From IMG/VR virus record IMGVR_UViG_2823670853_000002: DNA of 64,000 bases. One strand, given 5' to 3'. This DNA is from a virus (lineage: Duplodnaviria > Heunggongvirae > Uroviricota > Caudoviricetes). Under the pieces are notes generated by a model. The model did no database searches and had not been told where the DNA came from. It was given only the letters and a program-made list of their open reading frames with translations. The translations under genes and the position numbers were made by a program. Shown here piece after piece: positions 57,130 to 58,778 of this stretch; position 1 is the stretch's first letter, and each line of letters starts with the position of its first letter.

Positions 57130-57960
57130 GAAATAATGGACAGATATAACCATTTCCCCGCGTGCGCTTAGCCGCATTCACCGCAACGGAAAGAGCATTC
57201 TTGGTGGACCTGTAGATTGGGATATGAACCCGTTACAGGAGAATGCTCTTACCTGTTACGTGCTCCGTTTCGTGGAGCTAACGGCGGGTGATCGGGCCGC
57301 ACCAGACTGGACTTATTTCAGCGTTATGCTCATGCCAGAGAGTCAAACTGTGATGGTCGGTGCTGAACTCCGACACAGGGTTGTAGCAAGCCCCGCAAAG
57401 CGCGCACTACTGTAGTTGCGGCACATCAGCCTGTGCATTCACCACAATGTTGAGAACACTGGTTGTCACGCTGCAACGCAACATTTATTCGTAGATTGGG
57501 ATATGACCCCGTTACGCCAGTGTTCTCAACGTTGTAGTGCCGGTTACGGTTCCGGCCAGGCCTCTTCCTCAACGGGGTGTTCTCCATACGGACTACCGTT
57601 TATTGGTCGTTCCTGCGGTTTATGTTGTGAAGCCAGATGCTTATCTTCTGGTTGCTTCAAAGAGCTGCACTTCATCACAACGGTAAGAGCACTCGATGCA
57701 TTTAAGCCAAGCCCCATAAGGGAGAATGCCCTTACCTGTTGTGTTGTGATGACCGGTGCTGATCTCCGGCTTGCGGTTATTTCAGACTCTCACGGGCGTT
57801 TAATTGCCCCGCCGAACAGCTCTTTTCCGCAATAGCTGCAATGTCTTTCGCGCATCAGCCTGCGCATTCATCACAACGGTAAGGGTACTTCGTAGGGATT
57901 CGAACCCTCTGCCAAGCTCGGCGATCTCCGACGTCGCAAAATACCCTTACCTGTTGTGCT
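57130..57960. repeat. array of degenerate inverted/direct repeat units with tRNA-like fragments
   Basis: Recurring CACAACGGTAAG / CCCTTACCTGTTGTG inverted partners, a 15-bp inverted pair TGTTGAGAACACTGG / CCAGTGTTCTCAACG, direct repeat GTAGATTGGGATATGA(A/C)CCCGTTAC, and a T-arm-like GGTTCGAATCC. Confidence 0.6.
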
Positions 57961-58035
57961 GGTGCCGATTAACGGACTCGAACCGCTGACATCCTGCTTA
58001 CAAGGCAGGCGCTCTACCAACTGAGCTAAACCGGC
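57960..58035 (-). tRNA. tRNA-Thr (anticodon UGU)
   Basis: Minus strand GCCGGTTTAGCTCAGTTGGTAGAGC...CTTGTAA...CCA cloverleaf. Confidence 0.85.
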
Positions 58036-58037
58036 AT

Positions 58038-58113
58038 TGGCGATGGTGGATGGATTTGAACCATCGACCCGTTGATTAACAGTCAACCGCTCTAACCGCT
58101 GAGCTACACCATC
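58038..58113 (-). tRNA. tRNA-Asn (anticodon GUU)
   Basis: Minus strand GATGGTGTAGCTCAGCGGTTAGAGC...CTGTTAA...CCA cloverleaf. Confidence 0.85.
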
Positions 58114-58778
58114 ACTTGCCGGGTACGTCTCCGGCGAGGGCTTCCACCTCCGTATGCTTTTCGGCGCACCGCGCCCTGGCTGCAATTCGGTAACAGGGGA
58201 TGCACAACCCTGGCTTCCAGCGTGATTAGCGCCTTCAGCATGACGGGATATACCCGTAAATTCGTGGAACTGTACCCAAAGTGCTGTTAAGCACCGCTGT
58301 TACGCCGAAAAGAAAACGCAACAGGAAAGGACGCTGACCAACAGATGGCCCCTTCTCGTTCATCTGGTTAATCACACCAGCGCCCTTACCTGTTGTGCCT
58401 CCCCGTTCCCTAATACACAGACGGGGACACTCTGCGGTCGATTTTTTGACGGGGGACGACTCATACCCCGTGGCGTCTGGCTTCTTAGGCCGCTACCATC
58501 ATCAGATCATCGTTTGCATTTACTTTAATGGTCAGTTTCTAAACCGCCGCAAAGTCGCTAACCATGACGAAAACCCTGAAAAAAACGCCCACCCGAAGAT
58601 GGGCAAACTGGAAGCTCGTAACGCACTTCGGCGTTGCCACTTAGGCGCATGGTCAACCTGGCAACTCGGTGGTTTGTCTGGGAGGACTAGGCCCAGCCAT
58701 GCTTACCGCCGCGCCTGTCGCGGCTAACAGCTAAATCGCTCTATAAATCACGATTCATTGAGGCGATATTACACTAAT

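Follow-up and report, generated by a model that had tools for sequence, protein, structure and literature searches.

The DNA analysed here is a 64,000-nt stretch of a P1-like phage-plasmid (IMG/VR virus record IMGVR_UViG_2823670853_000002; hereafter, the window), and the subject of this study is its region between a pair of tRNA genes and tciA in the ban operon. We consider it moderately likely that this region is a tandem array of two kinds of structured-RNA module, named U and M, which belong to a widespread phage family, are transcribed together, and are cut at their long helices. That the RNA structures of the array are real is a point on which we are highly confident. The ~1.75 kb from the promoter P1ban to tciA is described as an untranslated, highly structured part of the minus-strand ban transcript. 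All relevant genes lie on the minus strand, which is the strand of the ban operon, and their order on it is Op72/P1ban, a dicF-like segment with a terminator, tRNA-Asn, tRNA-Thr, ~930 nt without a convincing gene, tciA, tciB, tciC, trnI, and ban. Positions were mapped onto the annotated P1 and P7 records, with which ARAGORN and the listing of open reading frames (ORFs) agreed. Over its full length, region 56200-58800 was 98.9% identical to P1 isolate OP279344; the reference P1 (NC_005856) matched it at 98% identity over 74% of the length.

Five long bulged hairpins, U0 to U4, were found on the minus strand, with stems of 19-23 bp and spans of ~70-100 nt. Their fold z-scores ranged from -4.2 to -6.3, and only 0-1 of 200 shuffled sequences folded equally well.

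58319-58395, minus strand: U0, upstream of the tRNA genes, 5' arm CACAACAGGUAAGGGCGCUG, -37.9 kcal/mol, z -4.66, with the third copy of the 15-mer described below
57872-57958, minus strand: U4, 22-bp stem with a bulged A, -42.7 kcal/mol, z -5.24, inverted repeat I9
57676-57743, minus strand: U3, boxA-like 3' arm GAGUGCUCUUACCGUUGUG, -34.5 kcal/mol, z -5.08
57440-57539, minus strand: U2, 23-bp stem, -49.2 kcal/mol, z -6.26, inverted repeat I1 and direct repeat D6
57182-57260, minus strand: U1, 3' arm AGAAUGCUCUUUCCGUUGCG, z -4.21, inverted repeat I4

The original prediction, made by a model from the letters of this stretch, had described units of about 100 nt bounded by inverted repeats and a 15-mer recurring on both sides of the tRNA pair, and both descriptions held. 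The 15-mer, CCCTTACCTGTTGTG, was present in exactly three copies, two on one side of the pair (57729 and 57944) and one on the other (58383). The chance expectation was 0.07, and none of 100 shuffles reached three copies. The arms of U2 differ in sequence from those of U1, U3, and U4 yet are fully compensated, and the interiors of U2 and U1 have the motif ACGGGKUCAUAUCCCAAUC in common.

The stretches between the U hairpins, overlooked in the original prediction, proved to be a second conserved structured module, M. In this module, a closing helix of 8-10 bp, two short conserved hairpins, and a variable insert between the hairpins make up a three-way junction, and the two loops are complementary over 6 nt (loop 1, GCUGAU; loop 2, AUCAGC). 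In M3, the closing helix GUUGUGAUGA...UCAUCACAAC encloses the junction AAU, hairpin 1 (GCGC-AGGCUGAU-GCGC), the insert, and hairpin 2 (GCCGG-AGAUCAGCA-CCGG), which is joined to the closing 3' strand without a gap. The definition used for M comprised the closing helix, GAAU, hairpin 1, a variable insert, hairpin 2, the closing strand, and complementary loops. When the whole 64-kb window was scanned with R1, a covariance model built from M copies of other phages, M3 and M2 were detected with default filters and Mx with the filters off, and no other M was found.

57743-57877, minus strand: M3, 10-bp closing helix, hairpin 2 GCCGG-AGAUCAGCA-CCGGU, 80-nt insert; R1 51.9 bits, E 5e-13
57624-57681, minus strand: Mx, a degenerate minimal M that has kept a hairpin-2-like CCAGA-AGAUAAGCA-UCUGG and the closing helix and has lost hairpin 1; R1 27.8 bits, E 3.5e-7 (filters off); direct repeat D5
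57348-57448, minus strand: M2, the architecture of M3 with a 47-nt insert, loops GCUGA and UCAGC; R1 40.3 bits, E 1.5e-9
57064-57187, minus strand: M1, STnc100-like, closing helix GUUGCGGUG/CACCGCAAU, terminal hairpin CCGGG-AGGAA-CCCGG; fold z -2.79

The modules form four tandem composite units on the minus strand, U4-M3, U3-Mx, U2-M2, and U1-M1, and U0 stands alone upstream of the tRNA genes. The stem of hairpin 1 in M2 (GCAC/GUGC) is compensated relative to that in M3. M1 lies directly upstream of the tciA ribosome-binding site.

The pairing of M was examined in an ungapped alignment of 54 distinct copies from which the inserts had been removed. In this alignment, 97.4% of the cells could pair; shuffles gave 87.2%, and controls with the partners slid against each other gave no more than 48.5%. 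Both sides changed in 13 of the 24 pairs, and none of 500 shuffles reached any of the observed measures. Compensatory changes were found in seven of the nine pairs of the closing helix, whose sequences are as unlike as GAUUGGAUG, GAGGGGUG, and GCAGAUG, and in four of the five pairs of hairpin 2. The only variable pair of the kissing interaction (columns 24 and 52) was G-C in 44 copies, G-U in 6, A-U in 3, and mismatched in 1, and the A-U form appeared in three or more separate groups of sequences, one of which contains the second M of phage CMS-2020a. G·U pairs outnumbered A·C pairs by 41 to 6. This excess indicates that the favoured folded strand is the minus strand of the window, the strand of the tRNAs and of the ban operon.

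Rfam scans at the gathering threshold and at E<=10, which covered the window, 11 module-bearing loci, and a canonical U-M locus, returned no family for U or for main-type M. Their only matches were the tRNAs, weak STnc100, weak YrlA- or tmRNA-like hits, an unrelated Proteo-phage-1 near one copy, and chance microRNA-like hairpins. The core sequences of M were not found in searches of the full-text literature. The search pattern for the family, TGAATGCRCAGRCTGATGYGC, had matches in at least 120 contigs of viruses and in at least 120 of bacterial genomes, the bacterial hosts among the matches listed being Enterobacterales, Pseudomonas, Halomonas, Xanthomonadales, Burkholderiales, and Rhizobiales. 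The M3 variant by itself was carried by 845 of 5,426 complete E. coli genomes (95-100% identity), with no annotated feature under any of the matches listed. A 41-nt block across the U-M junction was found in 209 isolated phages, virulent ones included, among them T1-like siphophages of Klebsiella and E. coli, an Ackermannviridae phage, two ~73-kb E. coli phages (one of them named as a podophage), HK620, HK633, and PY54. The M family is absent from Rfam 15 and widespread in phages.

M is regularly preceded by a U hairpin. In 42 of 72 distinct M copies, an abutting upstream hairpin with a stem of 13-28 bp and a span of 62-140 nt overlapped the closing strand of M, the last 4-6 nt of the U 3' arm being the first nucleotides of the M closing helix. 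Because one strand is common to both, the U and M helices compete. Furthermore, the 5' end of U nearly repeats the 3' end of M in 37 distinct cases (for example, CACAAC...GUUGUG...CACAAC and CAUCAC...GUGAUG...CAUCAG), indicating that both alternative helices are kept while the sequence drifts. The shared strand points to a conformational switch or to an order of events in which U folds first and M closes once U has been removed. In a large U subfamily, the arms CACAACAGGUAAGAGCAUUG...CAGUGCUCUUUCCGUUGUGG are almost invariant, with a bulged A, a U·U mismatch, and an interior of 50-118 nt.

The interiors of U and the inserts of M are variable yet structured, and some of them carry pieces of tRNA. 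In the window, the interior of U4 holds a small hairpin and a canonical T-arm, AGGGUUCGAAUCCCU, which corresponds to GGGUUCGAAUCCC (57894-57908, minus strand). The original prediction had noted a fragment bearing a T-arm here; the T-arm is perfect, and it is housed in a hairpin that is not a tRNA, as neither ARAGORN nor the Rfam tRNA model (E<=10) found a tRNA in 57872-57958, and the T-arm is the only tRNA part present. T-arms, a D-arm with a T-arm, or a complete tRNA were likewise found in U interiors or M inserts at loci L047, L025, L065, L130, and L110. At L130 (3950-4060), the M insert consists of a D-arm and a T-arm without an anticodon arm (partial tRNA match, 34 bits), and at L110 (7020-7180), it is a complete tRNA (40 bits). 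L049, L097, and L102 are also listed among the M modules with tRNA-like cargo between the conserved hairpins.

Taken with the additional tRNA genes (Tyr, Ser) in the same array of related P1-like phages, these pieces could suggest that the units are duplicated, decayed tRNA genes, an explanation to which we give little credence. Apart from the T-arm of U4, ARAGORN and the tRNA covariance model (E<=10) detected no tRNA element in U0-U4, and a canonical T-loop was present in just 5 of 42 U hairpins. The U arms, the M hairpins, and the closing helix have no counterpart in a tRNA and show covariation of their own. Across the several hundred copies collected, no intermediates grading into tRNA arms were seen, and the tRNA-like pieces behave as variable cargo rather than as an ancestral scaffold. 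The piece in U4 is best read as cargo in a non-tRNA scaffold, not as the relic that gave rise to that scaffold. The decay of tRNA cassettes that the original prediction had offered as one option is thus poorly supported, a T-arm being present in one of five hairpins of a module architecture unrelated to the cloverleaf.

Duplication, the companion of decay in that prediction, is only partly right. The units are paralogous, and the reference P1 differs from the window by one repeat period: it lacks exactly 196 bp (window 57671-57866), one U/M period, deleted between the direct repeats CTTACCGTTGTGATGAA. P1 consequently has three U-M units, compared with four in the window, OP279344, and RCS47, and module content also varies among the other P1 relatives. 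Copies of M3 that are 98% identical occur in lambdoid and T1-like phages, with different flanks. In RCS47, Ro157c2YLVW, and MH422554 (L009-L011), tciABC (window 56323-57064) is replaced by a gene annotated as an SPFH-domain protein or a serine protease; the similarity of these relatives to the window stops right after M1, so that the M1 boundary acts as a recombination junction.

The lost period, the near-identical M3 copies in P1-like, lambdoid, and T1-like phages, the variable module content, the exchange right past M1, and the short direct repeats that flank each unit are what would be expected if the arms and junctions were recombination linkers at the DNA level, or mobile cassettes like miniature inverted-repeat transposable elements, that shuffle modules without any RNA function. 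We nevertheless regard this as quite improbable. The closing-helix sequences diverge widely yet still pair, with G·U pairs that are strand-specific, a signature of selection on a folded single strand and not on duplex DNA. In addition, no transposase or recombinase is consistently nearby, and shuffling at junctions is compatible with, and even expected for, an RNA function. Ends of the IS200/IS605 type were also considered and dropped, since the two hairpins do not resemble one another and a transposase is lacking in the vicinity.

The genomic settings of M outside P1-like phages were then compared. ORFs clustered within ±3.5 kb of 123 copies disclosed no conserved protein partner, only typical lambdoid neighbours (CI-like repressor, lysozyme, RusA), and conserved neighbour genes were co-oriented with M in 75-84% of cases. 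At nine or more loci, M was situated in a pL leader, in which operators and promoter, a lambda-like transcript start, a canonical boxA, a boxB-like hairpin, M, and an arginine-rich N-like start within 15-20 nt follow one another. The boxA and the boxB-like hairpin stood 59-74 nt upstream of M in seven of nine boxA-bearing leaders and 128-130 nt upstream in the other two, as ordinary nutL sites. A canonical boxA near M was strongly enriched and confined to these N-leader copies, whose closing helices are ~15 bp long. mEp460 and Lys8385Vzw lack an N gene in the interval from the repressor to the early-left genes, and their leader is filled by U-M-terminator-U; in mEp460, the terminator past M and ahead of the early-left genes is a strong one.

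HK620 has a U-M unit (R1 55.5 bits) in the interval from qut to the annotated late terminator, a position in which it would be part of a short leader transcript made constitutively from pR'. By eye, the ban leader of the window at about 58490-58560 (minus strand; GCGACUUUGCGG..UUUAGAAACUGA..AAAGUAAAUGCAAACGA) resembles the HK620 late leader between qut and U-M (L256 1540-1620). The unit also adjoins tRNA genes. Same-strand tRNAs were next to M at 18 of 60 loci; in phage IME207, a promoter-like sequence is followed by a small hairpin, U, M, tRNA-Ser, and tRNA-Arg, and in CMS-2020a, the order is Asn-Tyr-Thr-U-M-U-M-Ser. At L049, a bona fide Rfam Proteo-phage-1 RNA (3205-3282; 76.8 bits) was present ~120 nt upstream of M on the same strand, and different phage RNA motifs appear to cluster in such leaders.

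These settings bear on the possibility that the modules are cis-acting elongation elements, which would counter Rho-dependent or intrinsic termination either through Nus factors or by direct binding of RNA polymerase. A Nus-dependent antitermination site contains a single-stranded boxA (GCUCUUUAACAA-like) that is bound by NusB/NusE, with or without boxB and boxC. In the common U subfamily, the 3' arm has the sequence GUGCUCUUUCC (or CUUACC), after which comes GUUGUGGUG (window 57676-57700 and 57182-57205); the bulged A is conserved in this boxA-like stretch, and the U·U mismatch is present in most phages. The U 3' arm and the M 5' strand thus resemble the rrn boxA, whose consensus is UGCUCUUUAACAA, and the GU-rich boxC that comes after it. 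M is promoter-proximal in operons controlled by antitermination (between nutL and N, after pL in lambdoids without N, and between qut and the terminator in HK620), and the strong terminator of mEp460 separates it from the early-left genes. The core is extremely conserved in hosts from the alpha-, beta-, and gamma-proteobacteria, as would fit a universally conserved partner, and ~1.75 kb of untranslated RNA ahead of tciA should attract Rho.

On the other hand, every U-M unit of the window is downstream of the sole strong terminator, and phages that encode N have M in addition to a normal nut site. The boxA-like strand is base-paired within a hairpin, as are the strings UGCUCUUAC and UGCUCUUUC in the U arms of the window. 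An exact GCTCTT stands beside M in just ~11% of distinct copies, and the boxA-like arm belongs to one homologous subfamily, so that its copies are not independent evidence. Moreover, one cis element would suffice, whereas the P1-type array has four with different inserts. HK022 put, a cis-acting, V-shaped RNA of two stems and ~70 nt that is located downstream of pL and pR and binds the zinc-binding domain of the RNA polymerase beta' subunit (PMC9378689), resembles U-M as a structured RNA immediately past pL in a phage that lacks N. R1 found nothing in the put regions of HK022 (22000-36000), and the put architecture (PMC9378689) differs, and M was rejected as a put element. We consider a role in elongation unlikely as the explanation of the array; it and the processed-array reading are not mutually exclusive.

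Our preferred reading, a co-transcribed array that is cut into its modules, draws on comparison with known RNAs. STnc100 and PasD are abundant, Hfq-associated prophage small RNAs (sRNAs) (bioRxiv 10.64898/2026.05.13.724894; PMC12370729). They share with M1 a closing helix that begins ...GGUGAAU, a hairpin on the 5' side, a middle part that varies, and, ahead of CACC, a terminal hairpin CCGGG-loop-CCCGG, and they occur in the same kind of setting, phage or prophage regions with TerB, Q, and lysis genes close by. Against Rfam STnc100 (RF02076; 206 model positions), M1 aligned to positions 31-147 and scored 38 bits (E 4.8e-6), short of the gathering score of 47; under the Rfam criterion it is a relative and not a member. 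In contrast, M2, M3, Mx, and several hundred main-type copies gave no STnc100 match, and main-type M has a loop-loop complementarity, as well as other hairpin sequences, that STnc100 and M1 do not have.

The hairpin of the lambda N leader, between nutL and the start of N, occupies the same position in the pL leader as the N-leader M copies, and its closing-helix strands GGCUUUGGGGUGUG...CACACCACCAAAGCU are nearly identical in lambda and in the M of locus L042. The lambda stem is reportedly an RNase III site, and both this stem and the M-module helices are long, with a length typical of RNase III substrates. The U stems of the window, at 19-23 bp, likewise have the length of RNase III processing stems (~20 bp or more). 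The lambda hairpin differs in that its interior contains neither conserved M hairpin (R1 found nothing in lambda), and the modules of the window, for their part, stand outside any N leader.

E. coli tyrT-rtT repeats and the species 1 and 2 RNAs of phage T4 are structured RNAs distal to tRNA genes and released by processing, and the tyrT repeats carry a tRNA 3' fragment. The array is like them in placing repeated or structured non-tRNA RNA distal to tRNAs in one transcript, but their sequences and architectures are unrelated to U and M, and rtT had no Rfam match in the window at E<=10. Among late-leader RNAs of the pR'-tR' interval (lambda 6S RNA and StxS), the StxS leader transcript from pR' acts in trans as an Hfq-dependent sRNA (PMC7547250). 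The U-M unit of HK620 lies in a corresponding place between qut and the late terminator, whereas the copies in P1 are internal to a C1-repressed operon and have no terminator past them.

From these comparisons, the following scheme can be proposed. The array would be transcribed from P1ban as one precursor, and its ~20-bp helices would be cut, most likely by RNase III, with tRNA-processing enzymes acting alongside. The tRNAs, the M RNAs, and the tci-ban mRNA would come apart through this cleavage, and removal of U would free the shared strand and allow M to close. The released M RNAs would then probably persist as compact, stable RNAs akin to STnc100, PasD, and StxS. Processing by RNase III is suggested by helix length and by the homology of the N-leader M closing helix to the lambda N-leader stem; we find it plausible and advance it tentatively. 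Persistence of the M RNAs is suggested by the abundance of their relatives STnc100 and PasD and by the action of StxS in trans, and a trans-acting role for them is possible but doubtful. M was rejected as a stand-alone sRNA gene, a terminator being directly past M in 25 of 170 copies and in 7-17 in controls. The "structured processing leader" that had been mentioned as an option in the original prediction is the one favoured by the conserved RNA structures on the operon strand, their fixed alternation, and their recurrence in other phage leaders.

Several points weigh against this scheme. The sole grounds for cutting by RNase III are helix length and a homology, in both position and sequence, to the lambda N-leader stem, and four tandem copies with structured rather than single-stranded inserts are unlike classical seed-bearing sRNAs. 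The 5' half of M is fixed by the search pattern, and invariance there is partly by construction, which leaves the closing helix, hairpin 2, and loop 2 alone as unbiased; the copies are also related by descent, so that the shuffle statistics overstate their independence. M2 and M3 alone fold little better than shuffles (z -1.0 and -1.4), and their support is therefore comparative. The kinship of M1 to main-type M is weak: R1 gave 23 bits on the M1 of the P1 reference and ~3 bits (E 9.3, filters off) on the M1 region of the window (57060-57120), and M1 has no kissing complementarity. Finally, CRISPR interference (CRISPRi) against plp and upl, two genes annotated across the array, left plaque formation of P1 unaffected (PMC10695390), so that any function is dispensable in laboratory conditions.

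A further and more far-reaching idea, which we also judge unlikely, is that the M core, its closing helix and two nearly invariant hairpins in loop-loop contact, tolerating inserts of 30-250 nt and even whole tRNA-like domains, is an undescribed phage RNA class that docks on a universally conserved host machine (RNA polymerase with Nus factors, or a processing nuclease) or processes itself. It would then be a portable leader cassette that makes untranslated or early operons termination-resistant or delivers structured RNA cargo, and the competition between the U base and M would be a built-in switch.

The two annotated genes themselves would offer a protein-based account of the region, in which Upl and Plp are encoded on the plus strand and the repeats are incidental. 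NC_005856 annotates upl and plp across U1-M2-U2-Mx-U4, and in this region the window equals the reference P1 save for the 196-bp repeat period. The window has ORFs of 63 and 139 codons here, which are also open in several near-identical P1 relatives, and in both NC_005856 and RCS47 the genes are annotated with predicted promoters. However, neither Upl nor Plp had a Pfam match. Plp starts with TTG in the window, its frame differs from that of P1 past residue 93 owing to the 196-nt indel, and it has in-frame stops in Ro157c2YLVW; the start and N-terminus of Upl are lost in CMS-2020a and at L036. Elsewhere, the "protein" similarity tracks the boundaries of the RNA modules and recurs in unrelated phages solely where the RNA module recurs. 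The annotators of P7, OP279344, SJ46, and D6 recorded nothing here or different ORFs on the other strand, and the asymmetry of G·U over A·C points to the strand opposite upl and plp. These genes are probably spurious by-products of the RNA-array sequence, and a coding function for the region is, in our view, very improbable. The original prediction had taken identity with P1 together with annotated protein genes as a refutation of its reading. Such genes do exist on the P1 map, but they fail tests of coding conservation, and their annotation does not refute the RNA reading.

The genes and signals around the array are as follows.

58766-58797, minus strand: C1 operator Op72/Oban and P1ban promoter region, a perfect-spacing inverted repeat (I3) that aligns with Obanab/P1ban of NC_005856 and P7
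58569-58670, minus strand: "dicF-like region" of the P1 leader, mapped from a misc_feature of NC_005856
58118-58135, minus strand: h0 hairpin GCCGG-N8-CCGGC, directly 5' of tRNA-Asn, read from the sequence
58038-58113, minus strand: trnA, tRNA-Asn (GTT), by ARAGORN; Rfam tRNA 74.5 bits
57960-58035, minus strand: trnT, tRNA-Thr (TGT) with CCA encoded, by ARAGORN; Rfam tRNA 72.9 bits
57539-57556, minus strand: h0 hairpin GCCGGAACCGUAACCGGC, directly 5' of U2, read from the sequence and present in the fold
57252-57268, minus strand: h0 hairpin GCUCCACGAAACGGAGC, directly 5' of U1, read from the sequence
56594-57028, minus strand: tciA, TerB family, 144 aa, the first protein gene past the RNA array; Pfam PF05099, E 2e-14; annotated in P1 and P7
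56430-56594, minus strand: tciB, DUF3927, 54 aa; Pfam PF13064, E 1e-25; annotated in P1
56323-56433, minus strand: tciC, 36 aa, an ORF annotated in P1
56244-56319, minus strand: trnI, anticodon CAT, upstream of ban; found by ARAGORN and Rfam and annotated as tRNA-Ile2 in NC_005856
54599-55969, minus strand: ban, downstream of trnI

The Op72/Oban-P1ban region is the start of the ban operon transcript and overlaps the end of dmt. In the window, dmt (58786-60804) is 2019 bp long (672 aa), the length of dam in P7; it is 2265 bp in the reference P1 and longer still in OP279344. The terminator scan returned a single strong intrinsic terminator on the minus strand, a stem at 58586-58605 followed by seven T, which ends the dicF-like segment; DicF itself had no Rfam match in this segment at E<=10. 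Permuted tmRNA and beta-tmRNA models matched the ban leader at 58447-58615 (minus strand) with 24 and 14 bits, respectively, far under threshold, and these matches are probably due to chance, falling on the terminator hairpin and nearby stems.

ARAGORN found three tRNAs in total in the window. The trnT and trnA genes, as previously predicted, are present, and U4 begins 1-2 nt past the end of tRNA-Thr. For trnI, ARAGORN called tRNA-Met (CAT) and the P1 record gives tRNA-Ile2, an identity that would need lysidine modification. A small hairpin often stands ahead of U or of a tRNA. Hairpins of the h0 type GCCGG-N8-CCGGC, to which the one 5' of U2 also belongs, were found 5' of U or M in IME207 and at L061, L044, L054, and L059, and the GCUCCACGAAACGGAGC form was found 5' of U at L013, L025, L060, and L063; they may be a processing or 5'-end signal. 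By contrast with the predicted reduction of the tci region to one TerB-like gene, tciA, tciB, and tciC are consecutive intact ORFs between the RNA array and trnI, with the order and sizes of the P1 and P7 records. The 5' end and ribosome-binding site of tciA have the form of OP279344 (and the gene length of P7), not that of the reference P1.

Other known elements were considered and set aside. YrlA is a Ro-binding RNA in which a long stem carries a tRNA-like module of T-arm and D-arm (PMC4201824), and some U and M copies are similarly built as a long stem with a tRNA-like module. The sole match to the bacterial Y RNA family (RF02553), however, scored 25.6 bits against a gathering score of 69 and lay over the two genuine tRNAs. 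Integron attC sites were rejected because the core sites do not fit RYYYAAC/GTTRRRY, and a retron noncoding RNA because no reverse transcriptase is nearby and no similarity was seen. Hammerhead, twister, and pistol ribozymes were likewise rejected; their cores are not in the junction strands, and none was found by Rfam.

The array of the window is to be placed with the phage-leader and prophage structured RNAs related to STnc100 and PasD. If the processed-array reading is correct, upl and plp of the classical P1 map would be annotation artefacts over an RNA array, and a very widespread, strongly conserved phage RNA module would have escaped curation, although its M3 variant alone is in about one-sixth of complete E. 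coli genomes. The module would be present in several hundred phages with hosts from alpha- to gamma-proteobacteria, occupying the early and late control sites of lambdoid phages (the N leader and the late leader) and also places beside the tRNA genes of virulent phages. It would thereby give handles on the function of STnc100/PasD-type RNAs, on how long untranslated phage operons escape termination, and on the processing of phage tRNA precursors.

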